Positions 13,982-53,098 of a stretch of DNA of 59,843 nucleotides are shown here, piece by piece (position 1 is the stretch's first letter; every line of letters begins with the position of its first letter). The stretch is from a bacterium (GTDB lineage: Bacteria; Patescibacteriota; Minisyncoccia; UBA6257; GWB1-50-10), in NCBI GenBank assembly GCA_030647415.1, contig JAUSKB010000016.1:1-59843 (forward strand), read 5' to 3'. The notes beneath the pieces are model-generated. The model did not search any database. It was not told the DNA's origin and saw only the letters and a program-made list of their open reading frames with translations. The position numbers and the translations under genes are program-made.

Positions 13982-13986
13982 GGAAT

Positions 13987-14085
13987 GATACCAATATGCT
14001 AATGGTACGAATGATGCGAATCATACGAATGGAAACGGATTAGTATTATTCGTATCATTCGCATGAATTCGTATATTAGCATCAC
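13987..14085. repeat. spacer-filling palindrome family C (cgaat words), copy C1
   Basis: Arms gataccaatatgctaatggtacgaatgatgcgaatcatacgaatgg / ttagtattattcgtatcattcgcatgaattcgtatattagcatc. It fills the gap between the serS start and the lysS stop. Confidence 0.85.
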
Positions 14086-14086
14086 A

Positions 14087-15529
14087 CTACGCATTCCGCA
14101 TCGGCGGGAAGAAGACCGTCTCGCGGATGGGTTTGTCGGCCATAACGGCGAAGAGCCGCTCGGAAAGCCCGAACCCGGCGGTCGGCGGCATACCGTACTC
14201 CAGGGCCTCGATGAAATCCTCGTCAATGCGTTGTGCCTCCTCGTCCCCCGCCTCGCGGAGCGCCATCTGCTCCTCGAACCGCTTCCGCTGTTCGTCCGGG
14301 TCGTTCAGCTCCGCCCAGCCGTTCCCTACCTCCGTACCTGCCGCGAGCACCTGGAACCGGAGTGCCCGGCCCGGCCGGTCGGGGTCCGCTTTTGCGAGCG
14401 GCGAGATGATGAGCGGGTGGCCGACGAGAAAGCATGGTTCTATAAGCGTCGGTCGGACGGTCTTTTTGTATATCAAATCGATGAGCCGCCCCGTTCCGAG
14501 CGTCGGGTCCACGGGGAGCGCAAGCTTCGCGGCGACCGCGGTAAGCGCCTCGCGGTCCGCAGTCAGGGGGTTGACGCCTGTCGCCGCGGCGAATGCGTCC
14601 ACATAGTCTACCTCACGCCACGTCCCGCCCCACTCGAGGATGACATCGCCGAACGTGGTGACGGTCGAACCCCAGGTCGCCTCGGCCACATGACAATAGA
14701 GGCCGGCGACGAACGCCATCATCTGCTGGTGGTCCCAGTAGGCGGCGTAGCACTCCATCTGCGTGTAGTCCTGTAGATGGTCGCGGTCGATCCCTTCATT
14801 CCGGAAGATGCGCCCGATCTCGAAGACCTTCTCGAACCCTCCCACGAGGAGTTTCTTAAGCGGCAGCTCGAGCGAGATGCGGAGAAAGAAGTCCTGGTCG
14901 AGGGCATTGTGGTGCGTCACGAATGGCGTCGCGTCCGCACCGCCGGGCACTTGCTCGAGCACCGAGGTCTCCACCTCAAGGAACCCCGCATGAACAAGCT
15001 CCTCGCGCATGGCGCGCCAGAACGAACTCTTCTTCCGGAACAGCTCCCGAACACCCGGGTCGGCGATAAGGTCGAGGTACCGCTTCCGGAGCCGGAGTTC
15101 CGTGTCGGAAAGTCCGTACCAGGTCGTCGGCACCGGCCGGAGGCTTTTTGCCGCAATCGTGGCCGCCACCGCCGCGATACTCGGCTCGCCTCGTTTCGTC
15201 GTGAGCGGGTTCCCGGTCACCGAGAGGAAGTCACCAACATCCACCGTCTCCACGAGGTGGGAAAACATTTCCGAGCCCAGCTCATTCGCGTCGAGAATCA
15301 CCTGAAGTTTTCCCGTACCGTCATCAAGGTCCGCGAAGATTATCTTGCCTTGGTCGCGCCAGGAAACGACGCGGCCGGCAACCGACCGCGCGTCATGCTG
15401 CCCGGCGAGGACCGCCGCGCGCGCCGCCGCGAGCGTCTCGGTGCGGGCGACGGTGGCAGGGTACGGATCGGCGCCCGCACGCACTCGTGCGAGCTTTCGA
15501 CGTCGTTCTTCTATGAGCTCGTCAAGCAT
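14087..15529 (-). CDS. lysS: lysyl-tRNA synthetase (class II)
   Basis: OB-fold N-domain (GRVVSWRDQGKIIFADLDDGTGKLQV) and class II core (FRNEGIDRDHLQDYTQMECY; GMPPTAGFGLSERL). Confidence 0.96.
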   Translation of the reverse strand: MLDELIEERRRKLARVRAGADPYPATVARTETLAAARAAVLAGQHDARSVAGRVVSWRDQGKIIFADLDDGTGKLQVILDANELGSEMFSHLVETVDVGDFLSVTGNPLTTKRGEPSIAAVAATIAAKSLRPVPTTWYGLSDTELRLRKRYLDLIADPGVRELFRKKSSFWRAMREELVHAGFLEVETSVLEQVPGGADATPFVTHHNALDQDFFLRISLELPLKKLLVGGFEKVFEIGRIFRNEGIDRDHLQDYTQMECYAAYWDHQQMMAFVAGLYCHVAEATWGSTVTTFGDVILEWGGTWREVDYVDAFAAATGVNPLTADREALTAVAAKLALPVDPTLGTGRLIDLIYKKTVRPTLIEPCFLVGHPLIISPLAKADPDRPGRALRFQVLAAGTEVGNGWAELNDPDEQRKRFEEQMALREAGDEEAQRIDEDFIEALEYGMPPTAGFGLSERLFAVMADKPIRETVFFPPMRNA

Positions 15530-15534
15530 TCTGA

Positions 15535-15608
15535 GATACTAATATACGAATTCATTCGAATGATACGAATAGTACTAATGCACCCCTATTCGTATCATAT
15601 ATTTTATC
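15535..15608. repeat. palindrome family C, copy C2 (right arm truncated)
   Basis: gatactaatatacgaattcattcgaatgatacgaatagtactaatg ... ctattcgtatcatat. It fills the gap between the lysS start and the greA stop. Confidence 0.8.
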
Positions 15609-20503: not shown

Positions 20504-20504
20504 A

Positions 20505-20653
20505 AGAGTAATCGCGAATAATGCTAATTATTGCAAATAATGCGAATGAATGCGCACTCCATTCGCATCAGTATACCTGCTATTCGCATTATTCGCGATT
20601 ACTCTTTTCATTCGAATTATTACCTTTGCTATTCGAATTATTCGCGATTACTC
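20505..20653. repeat. 149-bp complex palindrome family C-prime, copy 1
   Basis: Left arm gagtaatcgcgaataatgc. Two alternative right arms: attcgcattattcgcgattactc and attcgaattattcgcgattactc. It overlaps the last codons of proS. Confidence 0.85.
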
Positions 20654-21897
20654 CCGAGGAGCGCGGGCAGGTCCTTCAGCGCGACGAGCTCAGGCTTCCC
20701 GTTCTTGCGCTCTTTTACCTCCACCTTGTTGTGCGCGAGGGTCTTTTCGGAAACGACGAGGCGTGCGGGGATACCGATGAGGTCGGCGTCCGTGAACTTT
20801 TCCCCTGCCGACATTTCGTGCCGGTCGTCGAAGAGGACCTCCATGCCTTTTTTCGTCAGCGCCTCATACACCTTCTCGGCGTAGGCACGAACCTTTTCAT
20901 CCTCACCGAGCACAACGAGGTGCGCGGCGGCGGGCGCGACACTCCGGGGCCAGACGATGCCCCTATCGTCGTGGTGCACCTCTACGATGGTCCCCACGAG
21001 CCGGTCTACCCCGATACCGTAGGATGCCATGATAACGGGGTGGAGCGCACCCGCCGCATCGCGGTAGCGGAGATTCAGTGGCTCCGAGAACCGCGTGCCG
21101 AGCTTGAAAATATTCCCCACCTCGCTCGTCGCGACGTGCTCCACGACGCCGCCGGGGCATTTGGGGCAGGTGGCGCCGGACTTGAGCTTCGATATCTCCT
21201 TGTTCTCCGCATAGCCGCAGAGCCGGCAAAGCACCGTCTCGTCCTCGCCGGCAGACGTTTCCACCATGAACTCATGCGAGTGCTCCTTAGAGAAGTCGCC
21301 GCCCGATGCCTCCGTGACGAACGCGGTGAGCTCCATGCGCTTGAAAACCTTGAGGTAGGCGTGCTTCACCACTTCGTAAAACTCCGCAAGCGATTGCTCA
21401 TCCGCGTGGAAGCTGTAGAGGTCCTTCATGGAAAACTCCCGCCCGCGCATGAGGCCGGACTTCGCGCGCGCCTCGCTCCGGAACTTCGTCTGTATCTGAT
21501 AGGTCGAAATCGGCAGGTCGGCGTAGGAGAAAATGATATGCGTGCCGATCGCGGCGACAATCTCCTCGTGCGTGGGACCCAGGCCGTACTCCTTCCCTTG
21601 CAGGTCCCTAAACTGGTACATCACGCTCTTCATGCTCTCCCATCGGCCGGTCGCGTCCCATGCGGCGCGGGGATGGAGGGCAGGCATGAGGAGCTCCGAG
21701 GCGCCAAGCGCGTTCATCTCCTCGCGGATGATGCCGATGACCTTCTCGCGGACGCGAAATCCCAAGGGCAGGAAGGTGTGGACGCCCGCCATAAGCTTCG
21801 AGATGAACCCACCCCGCGCAAGGAGCTGCGCGTTCACCGAGACCTCATCCTTCGGGGCCTCTTTGAGCGTGCGGGAGAATAATTTTGACTGCCTCAT
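20638..21897 (-). CDS. proS: prolyl-tRNA synthetase, short form without INS editing domain
   Basis: MRQSKLFSRTLKEAPKDEVSVNAQLLARGGF..., motif 2 FRSEARAKSGLMRGREFSMKDLYSF, motif 3 SYGIGVDRL. Only 419 aa. Confidence 0.92.
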   Translation of the reverse strand: MRQSKLFSRTLKEAPKDEVSVNAQLLARGGFISKLMAGVHTFLPLGFRVREKVIGIIREEMNALGASELLMPALHPRAAWDATGRWESMKSVMYQFRDLQGKEYGLGPTHEEIVAAIGTHIIFSYADLPISTYQIQTKFRSEARAKSGLMRGREFSMKDLYSFHADEQSLAEFYEVVKHAYLKVFKRMELTAFVTEASGGDFSKEHSHEFMVETSAGEDETVLCRLCGYAENKEISKLKSGATCPKCPGGVVEHVATSEVGNIFKLGTRFSEPLNLRYRDAAGALHPVIMASYGIGVDRLVGTIVEVHHDDRGIVWPRSVAPAAAHLVVLGEDEKVRAYAEKVYEALTKKGMEVLFDDRHEMSAGEKFTDADLIGIPARLVVSEKTLAHNKVEVKERKNGKPELVALKDLPALLGSNRE

Positions 21898-22046
21898 GGA
21901 GTAATCGCGAATAATGCTAATTTAACTCAAATAATGCGAATAAATGCGCTCTATTCGCATTATTACCTCTACAATTCGCATTATTAGCGATTACTCTCTT
22001 CATTCGCATTATTATATCTGCAATTCGCATTATTAGCGATTACTCC
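21898..22046. repeat. 149-bp complex palindrome family C-prime, copy 2
   Basis: Same organisation and orientation as 20505-20653, and roughly 80 percent identical by eye. It abuts the proS ATG. Confidence 0.85.
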
Positions 22047-27152: not shown

Positions 27153-27190
27153 CAAGGCGAAACCTCAGAATTCCCCGAGGTTTCGCCTTG
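27153..27190. repeat. hairpin family B, copy B2 (contains the holB stop codon in its loop)
   Basis: caaggcgaaacctc-agaattcccc-gaggtttcgccttg, a 14-bp perfect stem. Confidence 0.88.
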
Positions 27191-29697: not shown

Positions 29698-31125
29698 ATG
29701 CCCCTCCGGCTCCGGAAAACCTTCTTCTACCTCTGCCTCGTCGCCTTCCTCGCCGTCGGCGGCTACCTCGTACTCTTCACGCGGGGGCTCGTCTTCGACC
29801 TGCGGCACTTTGAGCTCGTCCCCACGGGCGCGCTCTACCTGAAATTCACCCCGTCCGACGCGACACTCCTCGTGAACGGCAAGGAGCGGCCGGCCGGCGC
29901 CAACATCCTCTCCCCCGGCACATTCGTGGACAACCTCGCGCCCGGCACATACACAGTCACCGTGACCCGTCCGAATTTTTCGACGTGGACAAAGGCGCTC
30001 ACGGTATCTTCGACAATGGTGACCGCCGCAAGCCACATCCGACTCTGGCCCACTCACGCCCCCGCCACACCCGTCGCCATCGATATCGCGAATTTTTGGC
30101 TCACCGGGGAAGGTGCGGTGCTCCAAGATGCCTCGGGGACGTTGCGGCTCGCGCGTCGAACCATTCGCGGCTCCACAGTCGTTGAAAGCGACCAGGGTTC
30201 ATCACGACTCCTGACTGAGGGGCAGGGCCAGTTCTACCTCATGGATCTCTCGGCGCCGGACACCACAACAAATATTTCGGCACTCTTCGTCTCCCTCCGT
30301 AGCAGGACTATTTCACCAGTTGGTCCTGTTGCAACCGGCACACTGGTACGGTCGGGTTCGACTACCTCAACAAACTTATTGCAAGCAAGCTCGCCGCAAG
30401 CCGAACACGTCCGCGCCGTCCTCCTGCATCCCTTCAGCGGACAGAAGCTTATTGTCGGCACCGATGCTGGCCTCTACGAGCTCGACACAAAAAAGGTTTC
30501 ACTCGAACGGCTCGCGAGCGTGGACCGATTCACCGCGCTCGCAAAGAGCGGCGGTGATGCGTTTATTATGAACGGTTCGAGCACGATGACAGTGGTGAAT
30601 CTTATCCTCCATACCAGCGTCACCTACGCGTTCCCGCTTTCTTCCGGGCTTCGGTCGCTCATCGCTTCGCCAAACGGGAGCTACCTCGCGGCGATTTCCG
30701 ATACCGGCGTCCTGTCGGTGCTGGACCGGACCGCCGGGACATTCACGCCCGTCGCGCACAACGTCGTAACTGCTACCATCGCCCCGGATAACACAGCGCT
30801 CATCTTTCTCTCAACCGACGGGCGCTTGAACCTGTACTACCTCTCGGACGTCGCCGGGGACGAGCTTTTCACTGCGGGGCAGCTCACGGCGAGCGCCGGC
30901 CCGCTGCCGGTGCCGCCGGCGGGAACGCTCACCGCGCTTCCAAGTTTCTCCGGAACGGTGCTGGTACAAGCCAGCGGCACGTTGCTTGCCGCGGAGACCG
31001 ACCTCCGCGGACAGGTCAACAGCACCGCCCTCGCCGCGCACGTCCGTTCGTTTGCGATTCGCGACACCACCCTCTACCTGCTCTCGACCGACGGTACCTT
31101 GAGCTCCATGAACCTCGCGCCGTGA
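29698..31125 (+). CDS. membrane-anchored PEGA-domain / beta-propeller-like protein
   Basis: N-terminal TM helix (FFYLCLVAFLAVGGYLVLF), a PEGA-like segment (ATLLVNGKERPAG...LAPGTYTVTVTRPNFSTW), and repetitive beta-rich sequence downstream. Confidence 0.6.
   Translation: MPLRLRKTFFYLCLVAFLAVGGYLVLFTRGLVFDLRHFELVPTGALYLKFTPSDATLLVNGKERPAGANILSPGTFVDNLAPGTYTVTVTRPNFSTWTKALTVSSTMVTAASHIRLWPTHAPATPVAIDIANFWLTGEGAVLQDASGTLRLARRTIRGSTVVESDQGSSRLLTEGQGQFYLMDLSAPDTTTNISALFVSLRSRTISPVGPVATGTLVRSGSTTSTNLLQASSPQAEHVRAVLLHPFSGQKLIVGTDAGLYELDTKKVSLERLASVDRFTALAKSGGDAFIMNGSSTMTVVNLILHTSVTYAFPLSSGLRSLIASPNGSYLAAISDTGVLSVLDRTAGTFTPVAHNVVTATIAPDNTALIFLSTDGRLNLYYLSDVAGDELFTAGQLTASAGPLPVPPAGTLTALPSFSGTVLVQASGTLLAAETDLRGQVNSTALAAHVRSFAIRDTTLYLLSTDGTLSSMNLAP
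31023..31125. repeat. 103-bp direct repeat, copy 1 (functional 3' end of 29698..31125)
   Basis: caccgccctcgccgcgcacgtccgttcgtttgcgattcgcgacaccaccctctacctgctctcgaccgacggtaccttgag... recurs at 31838-31940. Confidence 0.9.
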
Positions 31126-31151
31126 GCTACGGCCGGGGTACCCATGCATCT

Positions 31152-31745
31152 ATGAAAAACTATCAGAATATAAAAGCGATTGCATTTGATTTCTGGGACG
31201 TCTTTGCAACTATGAATCCCCCCATGAACCATTACCTGGAAGAACGTGGCGTCTCAATTAAAAAATACTTAGACAAAATTCACAATCTTATCGTATCCCA
31301 CGACCTTGGAAAGATAGACGAAAAGCAGTTCCTTCAGGCATGCTCTCGAATAGTGGGGGTGGAAATCCCGTACGACCAGTGCCGGTACATATACCGAGAT
31401 GGGACCTTGAACGCGCCGCTAATTGAGATTATAAAAAAACTGAAGGCGAGATATAAAATCGCGCTTCTCTCGAATAATAATAGAGAATATGTCCAAGAGC
31501 ACATTTACAAGCCCGGCTTGGATAAACTTTTCGACGTAATGGTCGTTTCCTACGAAGCGGGCTACCAAAAACCTGCCCCTGAAATATACAAAAGCCTCAT
31601 TCAGAAGCTGCAAGTAGAACCAAGCGAGATACTGTTTCTTGATGACGACACAGGAAAGTTAGGAGCGGCAGAGGTGCAAGGAATCCAAACGCTTGCTTAC
31701 AAAGGAGAGGAAACAGATAAAATCCTGGAACACTTTTCTAGTTAG
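31152..31745 (+). CDS. HAD-superfamily hydrolase
   Basis: Motif I AFDFWDVF, motif II LLSNNN, motif IV FLDDDTGKLGAAE. Low GC relative to neighbours. Confidence 0.7.
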   Translation: MKNYQNIKAIAFDFWDVFATMNPPMNHYLEERGVSIKKYLDKIHNLIVSHDLGKIDEKQFLQACSRIVGVEIPYDQCRYIYRDGTLNAPLIEIIKKLKARYKIALLSNNNREYVQEHIYKPGLDKLFDVMVVSYEAGYQKPAPEIYKSLIQKLQVEPSEILFLDDDTGKLGAAEVQGIQTLAYKGEETDKILEHFSS

Positions 31746-31837: not shown

Positions 31838-31940
31838 CACCGCCCTCGCCGCGCACGTCCGTTCGTTTGCGGTTCGCGACACCACCCTCTACCTGCTCTC
31901 GACCGACGGTACCTTGAGTTCCCTGGATCTCTCGCCGTAG
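31838..31940 (+). pseudogene. 103-bp direct repeat, copy 2 (orphaned 3' end of 29698..31125)
   Basis: Near-identical over the first approximately 80 bp, diverging in the last approximately 20 bp. It ends in its own in-frame stop (tag at 31938-31940). Confidence 0.85.
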
Positions 31941-32229
31941 ATACGAGCTTGAGCGTCAAAGGGGGGTTATAAAGGAAGCGAGTTGAAAAAACTTGCGTTT
32001 TCTTTATATTTATGTTTCCATGAAAACAGTTAAAATCCCATTCACAAAATAGGAGAGGAAGTTGGAAGAAACCATTGGGCGTGTCTCTGGACTCATCGTA
32101 GTCCTGAGCGTCGTGCCCTATGCCATTCGGACATGGCAAGGGAAGGTACACCCGAACCCCACAAGCTGGTTCCTCTGGACTCTCATAGGGTTCGTGCTTC
32201 TTGTTACCTACCGTGACTCCGGCGCAACG

Positions 32230-33311
32230 GGGTTAAGGAAACTTTCGTGTGGGTAAGGACAGGCAAAAGCGCTTGATGTCGTCGAGCTCTTTTGCCTGTT
32301 TTGACAGCAAGATAGACATACGCAAGTCTATCTTGCATGAAACACCCATACTGCCCAGGCTGTTCGCGTCGCATGGAGCGCCACGGAAAAACAGCGGCGG
32401 GTACCGAACGGTACCGCTGTCCAAAGTGTCGGAAGACCACTGTCATCCACCGAACGGACACCCGGAAGCGGCATCTCCGCGACCACTTTGTCGACTGGCT
32501 CACCGGCACGGACTCAAAGCAAAAGATCGCCGAGAAGCTCGGCGTTTCCCGTCAGGCATTATCTAAGGAGTTCCAGCAGTTCTTCGGCGTTGGCCTCGAG
32601 CCGCCGATTCCCACCGAACTCACGGCGAGGATCCTCATCGTGGACGGCACGTACATTGAGGGGCGGGCACTCTGCGCTCTGGTCGCCGTGACGGAGCGGG
32701 ACCGGATCTTTTGGCGGTTCGCCACAGAAGAGCGCTACGGCACCTGGCTCGCCTTCCTCGAGTCGTTCCCGCCACCGAAGGTTGTTGTGGCCGACGGTCA
32801 GAAAGGCATGCAGCGCTTCGTGAAACATCACTGGCCTCAAACCGCCTTCCAGCGCTGTCACTTCCATCTGGTCATGCTCGTCACCCACTATCTCACCCGG
32901 AATCCCTCGGAAGAGGTGGGGCGAGACATTCTCGACCTCGTGCATCGTCTTAAGTATGTGAAAGCGCCTGCAGAGCGCGACCGGTGGCTCCTACTCCACC
33001 GAATCTGGGAAAAACGGTACGAAAAGGTTTTCGCCGAACGAACCGCAGGAGGAGTATACGCACATCGGAAGCTACGAAGCGTACGGTCGGTGCTCCGCCG
33101 CGCCACACCCCAGCTCTTCACGTATTTGGACTACCCAGGGTGCCCAAACACGACCAACCTCGTTGAGGGATGGGTGAATACCGCGATTGCGGAAGGCATC
33201 GGCAGGCACCGGGGACTCACCCTGGAAAAGAAGAAAACGCTCGTGTCGGTTATCCTCTCGAATTTGAAGCGGCCGACGAGAGAAAAACCCACACGAAAGT
33301 TTCCTTAACCC
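32230..33311 (+). mobile_element. IS1-family insertion sequence (single-ORF type), 1082 bp
   Basis: Perfect 25-bp TIRs gggttaaggaaactttcgtgtgggt (32230-32254 / 33287-33311). 8-bp TSD gcgcaacg (32222-32229 / 33312-33319). Confidence 0.9.
32337..33308 (+). CDS. IS1-family transposase
   Basis: The N-terminal zinc ribbon CPGCSRRMERHGKTAAGTERYRCPKCRKT mirrors IS1 InsA (CPSC..NGKSTAGHQRYLCSHCRKT). DDE-like region ILIVDGTY...VVADGQKG...TNLVEGW. Confidence 0.75.
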   Translation: MKHPYCPGCSRRMERHGKTAAGTERYRCPKCRKTTVIHRTDTRKRHLRDHFVDWLTGTDSKQKIAEKLGVSRQALSKEFQQFFGVGLEPPIPTELTARILIVDGTYIEGRALCALVAVTERDRIFWRFATEERYGTWLAFLESFPPPKVVVADGQKGMQRFVKHHWPQTAFQRCHFHLVMLVTHYLTRNPSEEVGRDILDLVHRLKYVKAPAERDRWLLLHRIWEKRYEKVFAERTAGGVYAHRKLRSVRSVLRRATPQLFTYLDYPGCPNTTNLVEGWVNTAIAEGIGRHRGLTLEKKKTLVSVILSNLKRPTREKPTRKFP

Positions 33312-36321: not shown

Positions 36322-36513
36322 GCGAATTTTTACTGAGCGAAGCGAAGGCTAAAAATTCAGCACCCCGCTTGATACGTTTGAAACGGAGGGCACTCCGGAT
36401 ACTCGACTGTATCCTATTTTGAGAAATATTGTCATTGGTTCGGCGATATCTAGCGGGGTAAGGTTTGATGGCTGTATTTTCTGCGCTTTCAGCTTGAAAA
36501 TCCAGACCAAGCC
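36322..36513. repeat. about 195-bp long-armed palindrome family F5, copy 1
   Basis: Left end gcgaatttttactgagcgaagcgaaggctaaaaattcagcaccccgc. Right end gcggggtaaggtttgatggctgtattttctgcgctttcagcttgaaaatccagaccaagccc. It abuts the rpsD stop. Confidence 0.85.
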
Positions 36514-36514
36514 C

Positions 36515-37114
36515 TTATCGGGCATAAAACTGGCTCACAACTGTTATGTCGAAGGGGAAATTCGTGTCGCTGGTGGTCGATGTTGCGAAAACGTTTCCGC
36601 TCATCGTGTCGGTATTGAGCTTGAGCCATGTGGGCGGCGTGAATTCTTTGAGGCGTTCCGAAAGCTCTTCAAACTGCTTCGAGTCGCGGGATTCGGGACG
36701 GATGGACACGGCGTCGCCGGGACGGAGCAGGTGTGATGCCACGCTCGAGCGGCGACCGTTCACCAGGATGTGCCCATGATTCACCAGCTGCCGCGCGATG
36801 CGCGGCGACTTCGCGAGCCCGAGCTGAAACACGACCTGGTCCAACCGATGCTCTAGCGTCTCGCGAATCGCCTGCGGCGACGGCTCGGCGAAAATCCGGC
36901 GCATCTGCCGGTCGGTGAGGCCGAAGTACCACTGAATCTTCTGCTTCTCCATGAGCTGCTTACCGTAGTCGGTTTTCGTCTGCCGCCGCTCGCCGTGCTG
37001 GCCCGGACGCGACGGCCGGCGTACCATGACGCACTTCGGTGAATTGCAACGGTCCGCCTTCACAAAGAGCTTCACGCCCAATGCCCGTTCTTGTTTTTCG
37101 GTGATTCGTTTCAT
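36515..37114 (-). CDS. rpsD: 30S ribosomal protein S4
   Basis: Zinc-knuckle N-terminus (ADRCNSPKCVMVRRPSRPGQHG) and an S4 RNA-binding domain (RLDQVVFQLGLAKSPRIARQLVNHGHILVNG). Confidence 0.95.
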   Translation of the reverse strand: MKRITEKQERALGVKLFVKADRCNSPKCVMVRRPSRPGQHGERRQTKTDYGKQLMEKQKIQWYFGLTDRQMRRIFAEPSPQAIRETLEHRLDQVVFQLGLAKSPRIARQLVNHGHILVNGRRSSVASHLLRPGDAVSIRPESRDSKQFEELSERLKEFTPPTWLKLNTDTMSGNVFATSTTSDTNFPFDITVVSQFYAR

Positions 37115-37310
37115 GCCGATTTTATTTGAGCGGAGCGAAATTTAAAATCGAGCACCCCGCACCACTTTTGCAGCAAGGTAGTGATTCAATGATGGTGTGT
37201 GTGATAGATGTCATATTTTTCAGTAATGATTCGTGAGGCAAAAGTGGTGCGGGGTAAGGTTTGGTGGCTGTATTTTCTGCGCCTTCGGCTTGAAAATCCA
37301 GACCAAGCCC
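37115..37310. repeat. long-armed palindrome family F5, copy 2
   Basis: Inner perfect 18-bp stem accccgcaccacttttgc / gcaaaagtggtgcggggt. The outer right arm is near-identical to 36453-36513. It exactly fills the gap between the rpsK stop and the rpsD start. Confidence 0.88.
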
Positions 37311-37763
37311 TTATACGCGTCGCCGCTTCTTCGGCCGTGGACCGTTGTGCGGGATGGGCGTGCAATCGCGCACCGCAGTGATATTGAAACCTTTAGCTGC
37401 GAGCGTCCGCATCGCGGAATCTCGGCCTTTGCCAATACCCCGCAACACGATTTCCACGTTCGTTGGCCCCGACCGCTTCACTTTCTCCGCAATCGCCTCC
37501 GCAACCTTCGAGGCCGCAAATGGCGTCGCCTTCTTCGGACCGGAAAACCCGAGCGACCCCGCGGACATCCATGCTACCACGCCACCCTTCAAATCGGTCA
37601 CGGTAATCATGGTGTTATTGAACGAAGTGTGGATGTAAATCTTGCCGGCGTCCAAGCGCTGCCTGGTGCTCTGCGCCGACTTGGCAGCCGCGGTTGCTTC
37701 GACCGCCTCGGATTCCTTGATGAGGTCGTCCTGGTTCTTCGTGATGGTCTTTTTCTTTCCCAT
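37311..37763 (-). CDS. rpsK: 30S ribosomal protein S11
   Basis: ...GKIYIHTSFNNTMITVTDLKGGVVAWMSAGSLGFSGPKKATPFAA... Confidence 0.95.
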   Translation of the reverse strand: MGKKKTITKNQDDLIKESEAVEATAAAKSAQSTRQRLDAGKIYIHTSFNNTMITVTDLKGGVVAWMSAGSLGFSGPKKATPFAASKVAEAIAEKVKRSGPTNVEIVLRGIGKGRDSAMRTLAAKGFNITAVRDCTPIPHNGPRPKKRRRV

Positions 37764-38161: not shown

Positions 38162-38163
38162 AA

Positions 38164-38274
38164 TGATACAAATATACTAATGGTACGAATGATACTAATC
38201 ATACGAATGGGAATTCGTTGGTGTTATTAGTATTATTCGTATCATTCGCATGAATTCGTATATTGGTATCGCAC
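38164..38274. repeat. palindrome family C, copy C3
   Basis: gatacaaatatactaatggtacgaatgatactaatcatacgaatggg ... ttagtattattcgtatcattcgcatgaattcgtatattggtatc. It fills the gap between the rpsM start and the rpmJ stop. Confidence 0.88.
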
Positions 38275-38387
38275 TAGCCCTGCCTCTGCTTATGCTTCTT
38301 GTTCACACAAATAACGAAGACACGACCACGGCGTCTGACCGTTTTGCATTTCATGCAGATTTTCTTTACTGATGAGCGTACCTTCAT
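38274..38387 (-). CDS. rpmJ: 50S ribosomal protein L36
   Basis: Not in the ORF track (too short). The minus strand encodes [37 protein letters not shown], canonical L36 in its usual place between infA and rpsM. Confidence 0.9.
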
Positions 38388-43609: not shown

Positions 43610-43617
43610 GCAACTAT

Positions 43618-43720
43618 GATACTAATATACGAATGGTACGAATGATACTAATGGATACGAATGGGAATCTATTGGTAGTATTCGTATCATTCGAATGCAT
43701 TCGTATATTGGTATCACGCT
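43618..43720. repeat. palindrome family C, copy C4
   Basis: gatactaatatacgaatggtacgaatgatactaatggatacgaatggg ... gtagtattcgtatcattcgaatgcattcgtatattggtatc. It fills the gap between the ATPase start and the upstream stop. Confidence 0.88.
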
Positions 43721-47006: not shown

Positions 47007-47383
47007 CGATCCCGCTTTCCGATAATCCCGGTTAGAAACCAGGTGGGTCCCCGCAGTCCGGCACGTATGAAAACAATTGGAAAGAGTTCTCAATGATGTC
47101 GGGCAATTGGTAAGGGTCCCTATGGAAATTGCTTGATCCGGAATCAGAGAAGCGGGACATCCATACTATACACCAGGAATTTTGCCGCCAGCTCATTCGG
47201 AGGTGCATAACTCCATTGACGGAACATCCTCGATGTTGTCCTATCGATACCTGAAAACCTTTGTCTCCACCGCCGCGTTTTCCGGATCCCGTTGACAGAA
47301 ATCGGCGGAATGGATGGGAATCCGCCGTGGTGTCAACTGCATGCCGCATCCCGGCACTTGACCGATTTCGGGGAGCTCCGAAA

Positions 47384-47881
47384 TTATTTTCCGTTCACGA
47401 TGCAATCCACAGCGCGAATCTCATCCAGGATGCCGGGGATGAGTTCGTAGTTCTTCCCCTCGTCGGGCGTGATCCATGCGGAATCCGTCATGTCCTTCCC
47501 TAGCTTCACCTCGCCGCCTGCATACCGGCACCAGTAGGAGAGCACAAGCACCGGAACGTCATCCGGCCGGATGAATGTCATGTCCGTAAGGTATGAAAAA
47601 TCTTTCACGGTGAGCCCGCACTCCTCCGCAATCTCCTTCGCGAGCGTCGCGGGAACAATGTCGTACCAATGGTGCGTGCCCTCGGTCTTCGGCAGGTGCT
47701 CATACTCGTGCCGCACGAGTTTCCCGCCGGGCACCGTCCACGCGCCGGGGTACGCCACCTCGCGCTCCGAGCGCTTCAGGATGAGATATTTCCCCTCCCG
47801 TTCGATGATACCCGTCACCGTGACGATATGAAGCCGTGGGTCAGGTTTACCCTGAGCAACGTCGAAGGGTTTGTTTTCCAT
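47384..47881 (-). CDS. NUDIX hydrolase
   Basis: Nudix-box-like GGKLV...LAKEIAEECGL with an unusually long insert inside the box. Confidence 0.65.
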   Translation of the reverse strand: MENKPFDVAQGKPDPRLHIVTVTGIIEREGKYLILKRSEREVAYPGAWTVPGGKLVRHEYEHLPKTEGTHHWYDIVPATLAKEIAEECGLTVKDFSYLTDMTFIRPDDVPVLVLSYWCRYAGGEVKLGKDMTDSAWITPDEGKNYELIPGILDEIRAVDCIVNGK

Positions 47882-47884
47882 GAG

Positions 47885-48475
47885 TTATTCGTCAACTCCG
47901 AACCGCTTGTACTCGAACTTCACGAGCTTCCCGAACCAGTGCTCAATCTCGTGTCTCGCCTCCTCCGGCGTCTCCGACGCGTGCATTAGGTTCATCACCG
48001 CCCGTTTTTCCTTGTTCGCCAGCGCCGGCGAATCAATGGAATAATCGCCGCGAATCGTCCCCATGTCTGCGTTCACCGGCAATGTCACGCCGGCAATCTT
48101 CCGCACCATATCTACCGCGTGGACACCCTGCACAACCATGCGGACCAGAGGCGCCGAGTCCATGTAGTCGAGGAGCCACCCGCGCACTTTTTTCCCGATT
48201 GCGAGCGCGTCCGTCGTGCCAACCTCCGTCATGGGGTCGTACCCATACTTTTCGTACGTCGCGAGCGTCTTCCCGCCGAGACGCGCAATCCATGCCTCGT
48301 CCTTCGGGTAGTGGTCGTCGAGCTGCGAGCGGGTCGGCTTGAACATCTCGATTGCCACAACTTTCAGGTCCCGCTGCTCGATGCGGCGGATAATCTCGCC
48401 CACGAGCCCCTTCCGGACCCCGTCGGGCTTCACCATCACGAATGTGAGTTCTTCTTTCGGATGTCTTGTGTGCAT
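47885..48475 (-). CDS. ndk: nucleoside-diphosphate kinase (with an about 45-aa insertion)
   Basis: ELTFVMVKPDGVRKGLVGEIIRRIE..., NLMHASETPEEARHEIEHWF. 196 aa, longer than the usual approximately 140-150. Confidence 0.85.
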   Translation of the reverse strand: MHTRHPKEELTFVMVKPDGVRKGLVGEIIRRIEQRDLKVVAIEMFKPTRSQLDDHYPKDEAWIARLGGKTLATYEKYGYDPMTEVGTTDALAIGKKVRGWLLDYMDSAPLVRMVVQGVHAVDMVRKIAGVTLPVNADMGTIRGDYSIDSPALANKEKRAVMNLMHASETPEEARHEIEHWFGKLVKFEYKRFGVDE

Positions 48476-48506
48476 CTGTTGTTGGTCGTCGGTTGTTTGT
48501 TGTCGG

Positions 48507-49928
48507 TTATTCTTCTCCCGTCTCCACCTTGATGGAGAGTTCGTGAAGCTGAGTAAGCGTTGCCTCCGAAGGTGCGTCCATCACCGCAATCTGGCCGCTC
48601 GAGGTCGCCGGAAAGGCCATCACCTCGCGGATACTCGATTCTCCCAGGAGCACCATCATGAGCCGGTCGATGCCTGGCGCGATGCCGCCGTGGGGCGGGA
48701 CGCCGTGGCGGAACGCCGTAAGCATGTGGTCGAACTGCGCTTTTTGTGTCGCGTTGAAGCCGATGAGGTCAAATACTTTCTCCTGCACCTCCGGGCGGTG
48801 GATACGGATGCTTCCCCCGCCGACCTCGTAGCCGTTCAGGACCATGTCGTGCTGGAGGCCGCGGACCTTCGTGGGATCGGTATCGAGAAGTGGTACGTCG
48901 TCGGGGTGCGGCGCCGTGAACATGTGGTGCGACGGGGCGAACTTCGCCGCCCCCGAGCCATGAAAGAAATCCTCCTTCGACTGCTCGGTGAAGAGCGGAA
49001 AATCAATGGTCCAGGAAAATGCGAGCTCGTTCGGGTCTTTTTTGTCCTTCCGAAGGTCCGGTTTGTCCGTACCGTACGTCGCTACCGCCTCCGTATGGGA
49101 GAGCCGCGGCCACGGCTTCTTCGTGATGTGCTTCTCGGGGAAGATGGATTCGGCGAGCTTCGTGAACAGGTCTTCGGCGAGCCGGAGAATATCCTCCTGC
49201 GTCACGAACGACATCTCGAGGTCGAGCTGGGTGAACTCCCCGTACGCCCGGTCCGCGCGTGGGTCCTCGTCGCGGAAACAGCGCGCAATCTGGAAGTACC
49301 GCTCGAATCCCGCAACCATGAGGAGCTGTTTGTACTGCTGGGGCGACTGTGGGAGGGCATAAAACTTGCCGGGCTGGAGGCGGGAGGGCACGAGGAAATC
49401 GCGCGCGCCCTCGGGTGTGGTCTTCGTAAGAATGGGCGTCTCTATCTCGGTGAATCCCTCGTTCGAGAGATACTCCCGGATGAACCGGACCGCCGCATGC
49501 CGAAGCTTCAGGTTTTTCTGCATCCGCGGCCGGCGGAGGTCAAGGTAGCGGTACTTGAGGCGAAGCTGCTCGTCCACATCGTGGCCGTCGGTGTCGAGCG
49601 GGAAGGGCGGGGTTTTCGCCTCATTCAAAACCTCGATCGCGGTGACCGAAACCTCGTACGCGCCGTTCGGGAGATTCGGATTCTCCATGCCCGCCGGGCG
49701 TTTCTTCACCATACCGGTGAGCCGCACCACCCACTCGCTCCGGAGCGTCTGGCCCACCTCATGCGCCGCGACCTCCTTGGGCGTGAAGACAACCTGCGCG
49801 ATGCCGCTTCGGTCCCGGAGGTCTATAAAAACAAGCTTCCCGTGGTCGCGCCGGACATCCACCCATCCCTCGAGCGTGACCTGCTCGCTCTCATGGGCGC
49901 CGATGTCCTTTGTGAGGGTTCGTTTCAT
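48507..49928 (-). CDS. aspS: aspartyl-tRNA synthetase (short, no GAD insertion)
   Basis: OB domain (VTLEGWVDVRRDHGKLVFIDLRDRSG) and class II motifs (FRDEDPRADRAYGEFTQLDLEMSF; GGIAPGIDRL). The likely start is MKRTLTKD at 49928. Confidence 0.93.
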   Translation of the reverse strand: MKRTLTKDIGAHESEQVTLEGWVDVRRDHGKLVFIDLRDRSGIAQVVFTPKEVAAHEVGQTLRSEWVVRLTGMVKKRPAGMENPNLPNGAYEVSVTAIEVLNEAKTPPFPLDTDGHDVDEQLRLKYRYLDLRRPRMQKNLKLRHAAVRFIREYLSNEGFTEIETPILTKTTPEGARDFLVPSRLQPGKFYALPQSPQQYKQLLMVAGFERYFQIARCFRDEDPRADRAYGEFTQLDLEMSFVTQEDILRLAEDLFTKLAESIFPEKHITKKPWPRLSHTEAVATYGTDKPDLRKDKKDPNELAFSWTIDFPLFTEQSKEDFFHGSGAAKFAPSHHMFTAPHPDDVPLLDTDPTKVRGLQHDMVLNGYEVGGGSIRIHRPEVQEKVFDLIGFNATQKAQFDHMLTAFRHGVPPHGGIAPGIDRLMMVLLGESSIREVMAFPATSSGQIAVMDAPSEATLTQLHELSIKVETGEE

Positions 49929-50046
49929 TCCTTCATAGTAATATCGGAGACGTCCGACGTCCAATGGACATCGGGCGTCCGAATATTAGGTTCCATGAGT
50001 TTCTGACCACAACAAAAAAGGAGCGGTTTCCCGCTCCTTGCAACCA

Positions 50047-50283
50047 TCATCTTTGTAAAATCTCGACTTCCGGATACCTTGCGGGATCGAATCCGCGGAG
50101 CTTGATCTCCTTGAGGATTAAATCATTCACAAAAGAAGTGAAACTGTTATTTTTCGTCTTAAGGTTCTGCTGGCTAACAAAAATTTTCACATATTGCGAC
50201 AGGTTCTTAGGGAGAAAAATGGTGGTCCTTTTCTTCTCTCCATACAACATGAACACTTCCGCTTCCGGTCTGCCCCTTTTCAT
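50047..50283 (-). CDS. small ribbon-helix-helix-like protein (cassette gene)
   Basis: The ATG at 50281-50283 is preceded by GGAGG. MKRGRPEAEVFMLYGEKKRTTIFLPKNLSQYVKIF... has a beta-strand then helices, typical of CopG/RHH. Low GC. Confidence 0.45.
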   Translation of the reverse strand: MKRGRPEAEVFMLYGEKKRTTIFLPKNLSQYVKIFVSQQNLKTKNNSFTSFVNDLILKEIKLRGFDPARYPEVEILQR

Positions 50284-50420
50284 ATTTTCCTCCATTGTTA
50301 ATGTCCCATTGAAAAATGTATTTTATTGTTATCACTCTTTTATTCTCGTGTCAACCATGTTTTATTACAACATATTCGAATTTACAGAGGCGAAGCCTCT
50401 GTGTGCAAGCCTCTGTGTGC

Positions 50421-50519
50421 AACGAGTTTGCCGTGGTCGCGGCGGACATCCACCCAGCCCTCGAGCGTTATGGTCTGACCTTCGTGCGCGGTGATGTCTT
50501 TCGCGAGGGTGCGTTCCAT
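50421..50519 (-). pseudogene. orphan copy of the aspS 5' end
   Basis: Encodes MERTLAKDITAHEGQTITLEGWVDVRRDHGKLV, compared with aspS MKRTLTKDIGAHESEQVTLEGWVDVRRDHGKLV. The 89-bp DNA match is 50431-50519 against 49840-49928. Confidence 0.85.
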
Positions 50520-50583
50520 ATACAAACACATACTACCACGGCGTCGCCGAATGTAAAAAAGGGTCAGGAGCCTCGGATTCACA

Positions 50584-50618
50584 AGGCGAGACCTTAAAAG
50601 AATCCCAAGGTCTCGCCT
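50584..50618. repeat. hairpin family B, copy B4
   Basis: aggcgagacctt-aaaagaatccc-aaggtctcgcct, downstream of the 50644 stop. Confidence 0.85.
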
Positions 50619-50643
50619 CGGGGAACCGGGTTCCTAATCTTTC

Positions 50644-51522
50644 TTAACGCGCGGTGAAAACCTGCAACCCCAACCCGCCCAACCGCACCTCAATTGTCCC
50701 CCGCTCGTCCGTGCGAAAAATGGCGGCGCCCGCGGCGCGGAGCCGCGCGAGCGTTTCGGACGTCGGGTGGCCGTAGCTATTCTTCCCGACTTCAATGACG
50801 GCGACCGCGGGGCGGAGCGCGCGGAGAAACTCTTCTGATGAGGAAAACTTCGACCCGTGGTGGCCGACTTTCAGAATATCCACGGGACTTACGCCCGCGC
50901 GGACGAGTGTCCGCTCGACCGGCGCCCCAGCGTCGCCGGTGAAGAGGGCGGAAACGCCGCCGCTCTCGACGCGCGCGACGAGCGTCGTATCGTTCAGGTC
51001 ATCCGAGCGAAGCAGGTCTGGCGTCGGCGAAAGTATGCGAACCGTACCGCCGCTCGTCCGAATACGGTCGCCCGCTCCGAGCTCGACCATACGGATGCCA
51101 CGCTCCTCGATGACCCGGATGAGCTCGCGGTACGCATCGGTATCCCGCGACCGCCCCGAAGAGAGGAAGGCGCCGACATCATACTGCCGGAGTACCTCGA
51201 TAAGCCCGCCAAAGTGGTCCTCTTGCGGATGGGTCATGAGCACCAGGTCGATATAGCGGTCGGTCGGGGCGAGCGCGCGTCCCAGTTCCCGGAGCACCGC
51301 GCCGGTCGGCGGCCCGCCGTCAATGAGGAGCTGTACGCCGCCGGCCTGCCCGCCTCCGGCGGGGAATTCCACGAGTTCGCTATCCCCCTGCCCCACGTCG
51401 AGAAAGAGAAATCTCGTTTCGGCGGATGACGCAAGCACTCCCCGCCACACAACGATATCGAGCGCGAGGAGGGCGAGCGCGAGTATGAGGATTTTTTCTT
51501 TATGTTTCTCAAGTATGCGCAT
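50644..51522 (-). CDS. ComEC-type metallo-beta-lactamase domain protein (separate ORF)
   Basis: FLDVGQGDSELVEF, LVLMTHPQEDHFGGL, KVGHHGS. It overlaps the upstream comEC channel ORF by 14 nt. Confidence 0.85.
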   Translation of the reverse strand: MRILEKHKEKILILALALLALDIVVWRGVLASSAETRFLFLDVGQGDSELVEFPAGGGQAGGVQLLIDGGPPTGAVLRELGRALAPTDRYIDLVLMTHPQEDHFGGLIEVLRQYDVGAFLSSGRSRDTDAYRELIRVIEERGIRMVELGAGDRIRTSGGTVRILSPTPDLLRSDDLNDTTLVARVESGGVSALFTGDAGAPVERTLVRAGVSPVDILKVGHHGSKFSSSEEFLRALRPAVAVIEVGKNSYGHPTSETLARLRAAGAAIFRTDERGTIEVRLGGLGLQVFTAR

Positions 51523-53098
51523 TTTTGAGATGGGTTCTCGTCATCCAGACCACGAATCCGATAAGCACGGCATAGTACGCGAACGCGCCAGCCCACGAAA
51601 TGGCGGGGGCGACGGGCACGGAAATCAAGCTGAATAGCCGGATAACGCCCAACTCATACTGCGTGAGCGCCCATGCGACGAGACCGACGACTTGCGCAAG
51701 GAGAATCGACGCGGCACCGACTGCGGCGGTTAAGAACCCCACACCCATTGTAATCGGCACCGCGGCAAGGATGAGCAGGTTCGCCGCGAGCGAGGTCACA
51801 GACACCATCCCAAACTGCGCAATCAAGATGGGTGCAACCGCGAGCTGGGCTGCGGCAGTCGTGGATAGTGTGGTACGCCAGTCGAGGAAACCTTTGTTCC
51901 CCCGGGACGCCGTAAATCGCCGGAGCACGGGCTCAAGGTAGACGATGCCGAGAAGGGCGACGAAGGAGAGCTGGAACCCCACGTCGAACGCGAGCACCTT
52001 CGGGTTCACGAGAACCATCGCGAGGCCGGCGAGGACGACGGCCTGCCGAACGTCGAAGAGTCGTCCAGTCTCCTTCGCGGCGAGGGCGAGTGACCCCATG
52101 ATTGCGGCTCGAACCACCGATGCCTCCGCCCCTGCCATACACACAAACCCGAGTATCACCGCAAGCGTGACGAGGAACGCTGCTCGACGCCGTCGAGATA
52201 TGAGCCAGAGCGCCGCACCCATGACCGCCTCGCCAAGAATGGTGATGTTATACCCGGAGAGCGCGACAAGGTGCGTCGTGCCGGAGCGCTGCATGGAGTT
52301 CTTTAGCTCATCCGAAAACGCACCGCGCTCCCCCACCGTGAGGCCGGAGAGAAACGAGGCGTCCTCCGCCGGCAGGACGCGCGCGAAGACGCCGGTCACC
52401 GCATGCTTCAGGGAGAAGAGCGCGGACTGAATCGGCGAGCCCTGCCCACGCGCGACGACGGTAACCGTCGGCCGGTTCATCACGCCCGACACACGCTCCT
52501 TCGCAAGGTACCGGGCGTACCCCTCGGGCTCCGGTTGCTTCACGACGCCGGCGAGTGAAACCTCGTCCCCGTACCGGACCGCCGGGTACGGCGGGAGGTT
52601 CGCGATGACCCGCCCGACCGGACGCCAGCCCGACAAAGCCGTTCTGGCGGGGTCGTTCGGGCGGGCCCGCCCTGCTGCGGCTCCGTGAGCTGGCGGATCG
52701 AGCCGGATGAATGCTGAACGGTACCCATCCCGAAGCACCGGATCATTCACCACAACGCCGCGCAACGTCTGGGTTCCCAGTGACACCGCAGAGGCACGGA
52801 ATCGCATGTCGTCGAAGTGGTAGTACACCGACCCCGCGATGATGAGCGGCGCGAGCGCCGCAAGCACAAAGCACCGGCGTCGCATCGCGCCCCAAGGCGA
52901 GACCTCAAGAATCCCCGAGGTCTCGCCTTGGGGCGCGAGTACTGAAATGAAACGTGGCGCAAAGAATCCAACAATAAGCAACACCGCGGCGAGCGCGGCG
53001 ACTATAAGAAGCACCTGATAGGTCAACCCAAGACTCGCGAGGAGGACCCCGAGGAGGAATGTGAGCGCTCCGTAGAACAGCACGCTCGGTGCAGGCAC
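51509..53098 (-). CDS. comEC: DNA internalisation competence protein ComEC/Rec2, channel part
   Basis: N-terminal OB/DUF4131-like region and a polytopic competence domain (...SGTTHLVALSGYNITIL...). It contains in-frame hairpin B5. Confidence 0.85.
   Translation of the reverse strand: MPAPSVLFYGALTFLLGVLLASLGLTYQVLLIVAALAAVLLIVGFFAPRFISVLAPQGETSGILEVSPWGAMRRRCFVLAALAPLIIAGSVYYHFDDMRFRASAVSLGTQTLRGVVVNDPVLRDGYRSAFIRLDPPAHGAAAGRARPNDPARTALSGWRPVGRVIANLPPYPAVRYGDEVSLAGVVKQPEPEGYARYLAKERVSGVMNRPTVTVVARGQGSPIQSALFSLKHAVTGVFARVLPAEDASFLSGLTVGERGAFSDELKNSMQRSGTTHLVALSGYNITILGEAVMGAALWLISRRRRAAFLVTLAVILGFVCMAGAEASVVRAAIMGSLALAAKETGRLFDVRQAVVLAGLAMVLVNPKVLAFDVGFQLSFVALLGIVYLEPVLRRFTASRGNKGFLDWRTTLSTTAAAQLAVAPILIAQFGMVSVTSLAANLLILAAVPITMGVGFLTAAVGAASILLAQVVGLVAWALTQYELGVIRLFSLISVPVAPAISWAGAFAYYAVLIGFVVWMTRTHLKNAHT
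52892..52931. repeat. hairpin family B, copy B5 (in-frame inside comEC)
   Basis: ccaaggcgagacctc-aagaatcccc-gaggtctcgccttgg, a 15-bp perfect stem translated as QGETSGILEVSPW. Confidence 0.88.

Follow-up and report, generated by a model that had tools for sequence, protein, structure and literature searches.

Two aspS starts flanking a small accessory gene in a groundwater Patescibacteria genome, and their possible origin as a recombination scar

How does an essential gene come to have two starts, one of them an orphan cut off from the gene by a small accessory cassette? The question is raised by aspS, the gene for aspartyl-tRNA synthetase (AspRS), on contig JAUSKB010000016.1 (GenBank assembly GCA_030647415.1), a metagenome-assembled genome of a groundwater bacterium of the Patescibacteria, or candidate phyla radiation (CPR). 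We analyzed this contig from position 1 to 59,843, a stretch of 58% GC that we call the window. Upstream of aspS, a direct repeat places a second copy of the first 33 codons beyond a cassette with one small open reading frame (ORF). The best explanation we can offer, to which we give an even chance of being right, is that the locus is a recombination scar, in which the cassette and a surrogate aspS start would have been acquired together within the conserved 5' coding stretch of aspS, without an integrase.

The two copies of the aspS start

A repeat search located two direct copies of 99 nt, ungapped, with 77% nucleotide identity and a spacing of 591 nt (Table 1). Each copy opens with an ATG and continues in frame for 33 codons, and 26 of the 33 amino acids are identical (MKRTLTKDIGAHESEQVTLEGWVDVRRDHGKLV versus MERTLAKDITAHEGQTITLEGWVDVRRDHGKLV). 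A preliminary description of this DNA, prepared by a model from the letters, had reported a repeat of about 30 codons (50431-50519 and 49840-49928) with a DNA identity of three quarters to 80% and a protein identity of 22/30. The repeat is real and its DNA identity was judged correctly, but it is 10 nt longer than described, and over the same 30 codons we count 23/30 identical residues. A chance origin is excluded, because a 23-nt core pattern has only two sites in the window, both within the repeat copies, and was matched in 0 of 100 shuffles, and because the self-BLAST of the pair gives an E-value of 8e-14.

The 23 differences between the copies are distributed over codon positions 1, 2 and 3 as 7, 2 and 14 (chi-square ∼9.5, p ∼0.009). 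By the Nei-Gojobori method, the proportions of synonymous (pS) and nonsynonymous (pN) sites that differ between the orphan and the intact start are 0.59 and 0.125, with a dN/dS of ∼0.12; the core TLEGWVDVRRDHGKLV is unchanged at the protein level and carries five silent changes. When compared with other aspS alleles, a check that the preliminary description had proposed, the orphan scores as a normal CPR AspRS N-terminus, with its best matches in the window's own clade. Because the differences are biased toward third positions, dN/dS is low and the orphan has neither indel nor stop codon, the copies must have diverged mostly as functional aspS starts in separate lineages and been brought together later by recombination. 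The substitutions thus bear the signature of an allele shaped by purifying selection in another lineage, in line with the earlier suggestion of an allele from another strain, and the orphan, which also has a promoter (see below), was correctly recognized as a genuine aspS 5' fragment. It is now probably a still-transcribed but functionless pseudogene fragment.

Homology is lost beyond codon 33, within the stretch that encodes the conserved GWVDVRRDHGKLV, and this is where the break lies rather than at the aspS start, where the insertion had at first been placed. Uninterrupted identity between the copies is short, with longest runs of 14, 11 and 11 nt; such runs fit the core of an attachment (att) site but are equally expected from the conserved GWVDVRRDHG coding sequence. 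We rejected a transposon target-site duplication, as fresh duplicates are identical and their later decay would carry no silent-site bias. A diversity-generating retroelement was likewise rejected, the mismatches not being adenine-specific (C/G, T/C and G/C at silent sites) and the insert containing no reverse transcriptase.

A metagenome-assembled genome from a community with related lineages invites the suspicion that two co-occurring strains were fused by the assembler. An independent Logan assembly of run SRR13727527 is, however, 100% identical to the window over positions 47046-52685 (5.6 kb), so the structure is not the product of one assembler. No shared sequence longer than 14 nt is available for a strain switch, and at the codon-33 junction the cassette side offers no homology. 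We therefore treat the structure as real and give an assembly chimera almost no credence.

The cassette, its relatives and its surroundings

The insert between the copies (49929-50420, 492 bp) is 42% GC, as compared to 62-65% for aspS and the neighboring metallo-beta-lactamase (MBL) gene, which bears out its earlier description as AT-rich; AT-rich intergenic stretches are common in the window. Its only coding-supported ORF is the 78-aa gene already noted in the preliminary description, present with a GGAGGA Shine-Dalgarno (SD) sequence. At the junction with the orphan, a tandem gcctctgtgtgcaa occurs twice, as had been seen before (50395-50408 and 50409-50422), with no other copies in the window. 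The first 14-mer shares the TT of codon 33, and the microhomology at this illegitimate joint is therefore at most 2 nt. The 8-bp hairpin described at the junction (acagaggc-gaa-gcctctgt) is present, at 50384-50402, about 2 nt from where it had been put. An element bounded by hairpins of the IS200/IS605 type was rejected, as the two hairpins flanking the orphan block are unrelated in sequence. On the other side of the insert, 89 nt separate the terminator of the small ORF from the aspS ATG.

Table 1. Features of the aspS locus and adjacent genes in the window, listed in the direction of transcription
Feature	Position	Strand	Basis or remark
ComEC	51509-53098	-	
MBL, a separate ComEC-type metallo-beta-lactamase gene	50644-51522	-	
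Repetitive extragenic palindrome (REP)-like palindrome, 18-bp stem, just 3' of the MBL stop codon	50574-50628	.	Inverted repeat; RNA fold -43.6 kcal/mol, z -6.5
Promoter-like site of the orphan, TTTACA-16-TG-n-TAGTAT, extended -10	50530-50557	-	Promoter scan; ends 10 nt before the orphan ATG
Orphan aspS fragment, codons 1-33, in frame, without stop codon or indel	50421-50519	-	
Junction: tandem 14-mers, 8-bp hairpin, and 12 unrelated codons plus stop closing the 45-codon orphan ORF	50382-50422	-	Fold z only -1.8
Predicted small-ORF promoter, TTGACA-18-AACAAT	50325-50354	-	Promoter scan, 10/12 matches; TTGACA aligns in four cassettes
Small ORF, 78 aa, GGAGGA SD 4 nt before ATG; 82 aa from alternative start at 50295	50047-50283	-	Predicted beta-alpha-alpha
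Predicted intrinsic terminator of the small ORF, 9-bp stem then T run	50018-50039	-	Near-identical hairpin after the L085 and L086 cassettes
48-nt imperfect palindrome in the new aspS leader, with GACGTCnGACGTC at 49949-49961	49940-49987	.	Fold z -3.0; unique in the window
Weak -35, TTGGAC, of the candidate aspS promoter	49959-49964	-	Read from the sequence
Candidate present-day aspS promoter: -10-like TACTAT, 6 nt before ATG	49935-49940	-	Read from the sequence; below the promoter-scan threshold
Codons 1-33 of intact aspS (second repeat copy)	49830-49928	-	
aspS, 473-aa aspartyl-tRNA synthetase, OB anticodon-binding domain and class II core	48507-49928	-	Pfam PF01336, 4e-17; PF00152, 1e-113

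All genes near aspS lie on the minus strand, in the transcriptional order ComEC, MBL, region of interest, aspS, ndk and a NUDIX gene. Among GTDB genomes taken one per species, the closest aspS relatives share only ∼70% identity and all belong to the CPR; a large protein collection added two nearer lineages with 91% and 89% identity. The loci fetched for comparison (80 aspS loci, 930 kb in total) are referred to here by number. At L084 (aspS 89% identical in amino acids and 78% in nucleotides), the site is empty and only 39 bp separate MBL from aspS, so the vacant site that was to be looked for does exist. Its layout consists of the MBL gene, the short spacer, an extended -10 and the ATG, and the orphan occupies the exact place where aspS starts in L084. 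At L081-L083 (91% and 86%), the interval is made up of 50 bp, a 77-aa homologue of the small ORF, a terminator and a typical leader, with no orphan. L085 and L086, on short contigs from samples named Hain_H51 that hold only the 5' end of aspS, are arranged as L081, and their terminator hairpin is nearly identical to that of the window. The small gene is consequently not peculiar to the window genome; homologous cassettes stand at the same position between MBL and aspS in three relatives, and the orphan is absent from all four. The -35 TTGACA, which aligns across the four cassettes, overlaps the MBL stop codon in L081 and L086.

The relatives also allow the promoters to be compared. A TGnTAnnAT element lies 8-13 nt before the aspS ATG in L081, L084 and L085; in L086 it is found just after the cassette terminator, and it occurs also in L009, a Candidatus Doudnabacteria locus considered below. 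None of these five upstream regions has an SD sequence. Because the extended -10 lies so close to the ATG and no SD is present, aspS of the window group and of L009 appears to be leaderless or nearly so. The orphan, with its own extended -10, is predicted to retain the clade-typical aspS promoter. For the intact gene, TACTAT is a weak candidate for the present promoter and would imply a leaderless mRNA. The hexamer CAATGG occurs twice in the 5' untranslated region of the small ORF (50297-50316) and again, as CCATTGG, at the center of the aspS leader palindrome (49961-49967); this is ∼12 times the chance expectation, in a post hoc observation, and a possible reading is that of an operator half-site.

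An orphan that is intact, in frame and preceded by a good promoter-like site could be an old in-genome duplication whose upstream copy has been selected as a leader peptide or upstream ORF regulating the small ORF or aspS. We consider this extremely improbable. A conserved leader ORF is disfavored because the orphan is absent from the four relatives, a pS of 0.59 would need very long retention, and a strong terminator stands between the orphan and aspS. The conserved amino acids are those of the AspRS OB fold; aspartate codons are neither clustered nor overrepresented (3/45), whereas an Asp-sensing leader peptide would have a run or surplus of them, and no Rfam leader or T-box was found. A known RNA leader, T-box or tRNA integration site was rejected on the same searches, as Rfam gave only chance matches of miRNA models to the REP hairpin and ARAGORN found no tRNA in the window.

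The small ORF itself is a genuine gene under selection, equipped with an SD and with a predicted promoter and terminator of its own. It is intact with an SD in four lineages, with 21 invariant columns; pN is below pS in every pair, and dN/dS is 0.12-0.42 where computable. An exhaustive HMMER search over 1.84 billion representatives returned only these four lineages and a marginal repeat match in one 1301-aa protein, and no further relatives were found in a 5.8-billion-sequence collection or in scans of JGI metagenomes. The 1301-aa protein (P0124) is helicase-like and has four tandem repeats resembling the C-terminal EEIxxRGFDPxxLP of the small ORF (E 5e-4). The family thus has four known members, all from related CPR genomes and all encoded in the interval from the ComEC-MBL gene to aspS, and in each of the four the promoter and terminator of the cassette enclose just one gene. 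A phage or plasmid origin was rejected, as tblastn gave no match in 50,697 phage records, 72,556 plasmid records or IMG/VR.

The preliminary description had called the product a ribbon-helix-helix (RHH)-like protein and suggested a search for RHH homologues. No significant match came from any of the comparisons made. Pfam matched none of the four family members and no PDB sequence was hit; the PHROG match to an Arc-like protein has an E-value of 0.1, and the probability of a match to Arc is 0.4% in hhalign. A monomer model from AlphaFold2 (AF2) has a strand at residues 19-25 and helices at 26-40 and 48-62 (pLDDT 61), the model built with the four-sequence alignment has helices only (pLDDT 55), and Foldseek searches with these low-confidence models gave nothing below an E-value of 0.3. 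The RTTIFLP-helix pattern and the predicted strand, helix and helix do fit the RHH layout, which makes this fold of the 78-aa protein a reasonable guess, plausible but unproven. As compared with the RHH regulators and antitoxins (Arc, CopG and VapB-type), the small ORF is of similar size, has an N-terminal RTTIFLP segment followed by two predicted helices, and combines its own promoter with the marginal Arc-like PHROG match. It differs from them in having no significant sequence, profile or structure match, no adjoining toxin gene in the four genomes, and a conserved RGFDPxRYP tail at the C-terminus that those families are not known to have. An antitoxin that has lost its toxin, or a defense gene, was rejected after PADLOC and NCBIfam gave nothing significant. 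We regard the small ORF as an independently expressed accessory gene, possibly a DNA-binding regulator.

The cassette and its flanks appear to have separate histories. Between the window and L081, the silent-site difference is 0.41 for aspS, 0.47 for MBL and 0.60 for ndk but 0.89 for the small ORF, a value that none of 2000 resamples of 73 flank codons reached (maximum 0.77), though AT-rich composition may inflate it. Because of this excess, and because the terminator hairpin of the window matches those of L085 and L086 and not that of L081, the cassette is judged from sequence comparison to have been exchanged independently of its flanks. Homologous exchange among these lineages is visible at aspS as well, because the gene is mosaic: codons ∼199-264 (∼49137-49334) are 94-98% identical to L081 in nucleotides versus 86% overall, with a third-position identity of 0.82-0.94, and the longest identical run (65 nt) has a permutation p of 0.004. 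This segment looks like a recent recombination tract between lineages. In the JGI metagenomes, the one match to an orphan-peptide pattern was a chance match in an unrelated gene. Two further observations concern the relatives. In L081, a 191-aa gene without a Pfam match (8473-9048) stands between aspS and ndk and is absent from the window and L084; it is another indel at this locus. A candidate mirror-image orphan of the MBL 3' end in L086 was rejected, as MBL is there interrupted by a REP-like palindrome and a frame change on a contig with a coverage of 1.

Origin of the duplicated start

In the explanation that we favor, DNA from another lineage of the same clade would have entered the cell, carrying the small-ORF cassette (promoter, 78-aa gene and terminator), an aspS leader and at least 33 aspS codons of its own. 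It would have joined the chromosome by homology through the conserved aspS 5' coding stretch (GWVDVRRDHGKLV), while its other end was joined illegitimately right after resident codon 33. The route may have been a Campbell-type single crossover of a circularized fragment or a one-sided event combining homologous and end joining; repair of an aspS break from a foreign template, followed by end joining, would yield the same product. The agent would be the host's recombination functions after DNA uptake rather than an integrase. The outcome would be a chimeric aspS whose start and leader were imported with the cassette, and a resident start and promoter displaced upstream as a 33-codon orphan, now with 12 unrelated codons at its end. 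No seam is visible in the aspS reading frame. In experiments, a circular molecule that integrates by a single crossover leaves the homologous segment duplicated, whereas deletions result from canonical homology-facilitated illegitimate recombination (HFIR) (PMC3240628). Natural competence is documented for Patescibacteria, and most of their gene exchange takes place within the phylum (PMC10633639, PMC12455944). Observed here are the duplication with its coding-type divergence, the empty and scar-free sites of the relatives and the recurrence described below; which way the DNA moved, whether through a circular or a one-sided intermediate, and by which enzymes, is inferred. If it was the cassette that came in, the resident start is the orphan and the foreign allele would be found at the 5' end of intact aspS, the reverse of the preliminary wording, in which the orphan was the foreign allele; the idea of an allele from another lineage stands.

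The same anatomy recurs. Each of the 80 aspS loci was scanned with its own N-terminus, and one further clear case was found, L009 (Candidatus Doudnabacteria, JACPFQ010000003.1); weak second matches in other loci were rejected as asnS/lysS-type paralogues or chance. Between 5025 and 6001, L009 has three aspS starts in direct orientation, two stacked orphans and the intact gene. Orphan 1 consists of 13 codons at 5025 with a canonical TGGTATAAT promoter. Orphan 2, at 5193, extends over 28-40 codons and is 69% identical in nucleotides to the intact gene over the 28 codons compared, with some indels further on and differences distributed over the codon positions as 6/3/17. Between orphan 2 and aspS lies a cassette with an 89-aa ORF and a PIN_3 toxin gene; orphans 1 and 2 are only 136 nt apart, an exception to the bracketing of a cassette. 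A second gene-end duplication is found within the window itself, where 31023-31131 and 31838-31945 (109 nt) are 93% identical. The latter repeats the last 34 codons (at 31838-31940) and the stop of a 475-aa gene (29698-31125), and between the copies lies an AT-rich cassette with a haloacid dehalogenase (HAD)-hydrolase ORF (31152-31745; PF00702, 4e-17), an arrangement with the anatomy of the aspS case but at a gene's 3' end. In all three instances, an accessory cassette stands between two copies of a gene end, which is expected if the cassette and the second copy arrive together and not if a stray fragment lands by accident.

Several other repeats and mobile-type sequences were noted in the window. 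About 400 nt downstream of the orphan of the HAD cassette is an ORF for a Mutator/IS256-type transposase with an N-terminal zinc ribbon (32337-33308). Palindromic intergenic repeats of ∼100-150 nt, resembling miniature inverted-repeat transposable elements (MITEs), lie at 13984-14089, 15532-15598, 38162-38276 and 43616-43720, and a MITE-like pair (20504-20654 and 21899-22046) brackets a class II aminoacyl-tRNA synthetase (aaRS) gene (20638-21897). A 66-nt repeat (36453-36518 and 37249-37314, 95% identity) was rejected as a further case, since it is an intergenic element whose copies begin at the stop codons of rpsD and rpsK, where it may act as a common terminator or processing site.

A number of observations weigh against the acquisition of the cassette with the intact start, and several of these lend themselves to the opposite direction of transfer. 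There, the cassette and the intact aspS would be resident, and the imported block would consist of the REP palindrome and the aspS promoter with the first 33 codons of the gene. A donor with an empty site would have been the template for it, in MBL-anchored repair or transformation that overshot into the donor aspS, and the block would then have been end-joined upstream of the resident cassette. L081, the closest relative by aspS, and L085 and L086 all carry the cassette at its canonical position, abutting the MBL stop codon, without a scar; by parsimony, the ancestor of the window lineage may thus have had the cassette already. The orphan is the most divergent of six aspS 5' ends, being 67-78% identical in nucleotides to the four relatives as against 74-83% for the intact copy, a difference that over 93 comparable nt is within ∼1.5 SD. 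It forms the longest branch, with ∼9 unique changes, still mostly synonymous, versus ∼4 for the intact copy. Moreover, the intact copy is 82% identical to L081, matching the adjacent codons 34-99 (78-81%), and no step in divergence is seen at codon 33/34 of intact aspS. The identical runs between the copies are also short for a RecA-type crossover inside the repeat, no donor or pre-insertion genome was found, the protein searches giving only relatives of at most 91% identity, and no circular or excised form was observed.

Nevertheless, we consider import of the orphan block unlikely. It offers no reason why the copies should flank exactly one accessory cassette, yet this recurs in L009 and around the HAD cassette. 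The MBL gene has no clear divergence break toward its 3' end, and the REP palindrome beside the orphan belongs to a small REP-like family present elsewhere in the window genome. The divergence of the orphan might alternatively be reconciled with acquisition of the cassette if cassette-linked aspS starts travel with the cassette and hence resemble one another. The REP-like family (CAAGGCGAGACCT...AGGTCTCGCCTTG) has copies in the window at 27154-27189, 50583-50619 and 52894-52929; the last is in frame within the ComEC ORF and encodes APQGETSGILEVSPWGA in a loop that differs from L081.

Could the repeats instead be attL and attR, belonging to a site-specific integrative element that inserts at the start of aspS and brings a surrogate 5' end, either as a decayed 0.5-kb remnant or as a nonautonomous element, like a cis-mobilizable element (CIME), moved by an integrase encoded elsewhere? 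Direct repeats of a gene end do flank the insert and the gene is reconstituted, as with phage 21 and e14 at icd and with islands at tRNA genes, the stacked orphans of L009 are as expected from tandem accretion, and the cargo of L009 is a toxin-antitoxin-like pair, typical of mobile-element remnants. In addition, GACGTCnGACGTC occurs at 49949-49961 of the window and at 5118-5130 of L009, 63 nt upstream of orphan 2, with 16/17 nt identical when the flanking CCAA is included; within the 930 kb of loci, it stands beside the incoming-type aspS start in these two rearranged upstream regions and nowhere else. Against this, the 492-bp insert encodes no recombinase, and scanning 23 window ORFs gave the IS256-type transposase, 18 kb from the aspS locus, as the only recombinase-type gene, with no integrase domain from Pfam. 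The duplications do not share a 3' limit, which lies at codon 33 in the window and at ∼codons 13 and 40 in L009; no att-like repeat accompanies the cassette in three relatives, and the motif is not enriched in viral contigs, GACGTCnGACGTCCAA having 5 exact matches in IMG/VR, by rough estimate at or below chance. We hold a site-specific element to be quite improbable.

A more far-reaching conjecture is that there exists a class of integrase-less CPR mini-cassettes that home to the aspS 5' coding stretch. Each would bring a surrogate start and a promoter or leader marked by a GACGTCnGACGTC-containing palindrome, swap the aspS control region and stack old starts upstream, with RHH-like or toxin-antitoxin cargo acting on the new control region or stabilizing the insertion. 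We think it very unlikely to be correct.

Comparison with known systems

Phage 21 and e14 integrate into icd of Escherichia coli, and integrative islands carry a surrogate end of their target gene. The aspS locus is like them in that the inserted DNA lies between direct repeats of a gene end, the target gene remains intact as a chimera while the displaced end survives as an orphan, and the two copies differ mainly by silent changes. It differs in that an essential aaRS gene is affected, at its 5' end and promoter, in the insert of ∼0.5 kb with one 78-aa gene and no integrase, and in having relatives that carry the same cassette without repeats. CIMEs and other nonautonomous integrative elements are flanked by att sites and have no recombinase. 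The likeness here is that of a small recombinase-less element between direct repeats derived from a gene end, with repeats stacked as in L009; unlike CIMEs, the cases described have no cognate integrase or parent element that we could find, and no fixed core or boundary common to them.

With HFIR and single-crossover (Campbell-type) integration, the locus would share one junction in homology and another that is illegitimate. Single-crossover integration of a circle duplicates the homologous segment, over 109-950 bp in the reported cases (PMC3240628). Those events were obtained in the laboratory between near-identical sequences, whereas the aspS event is inferred and its copies, 77% identical, nowhere match over more than 14 nt in a row; the illegitimate joint has at most 2 nt of microhomology and a 14-nt tandem duplication, as compared with the 3-10 bp of microhomology expected of such joints. 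The locus works like the icd-type and CIME elements, though neither the insert nor the ORFs scanned encode the integrase that defines them, or like a single-crossover event for which no donor was found. The scar is of a kind already known and does not represent a new kind of molecular system. New, as far as we found, are the involvement of an essential aaRS 5' end and promoter, the 0.5-kb single-gene insert, the CPR host and the recurrence at aspS in two distant CPR groups.

The locus provides a base-resolved example of how streamlined, competent CPR bacteria may gain an accessory gene beside an essential gene without breaking aspS: the incoming DNA would supply a replacement gene start, and the old start would be left behind as a datable scar. 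Two leads follow from it, the four-member protein family always encoded upstream of aspS and the GACGTC motif common to the two rearranged aspS leaders. The recurrence in a Doudnabacteria genome and at a second gene of the window suggests that gene-end duplications may serve as markers of recent gene exchange in the CPR.

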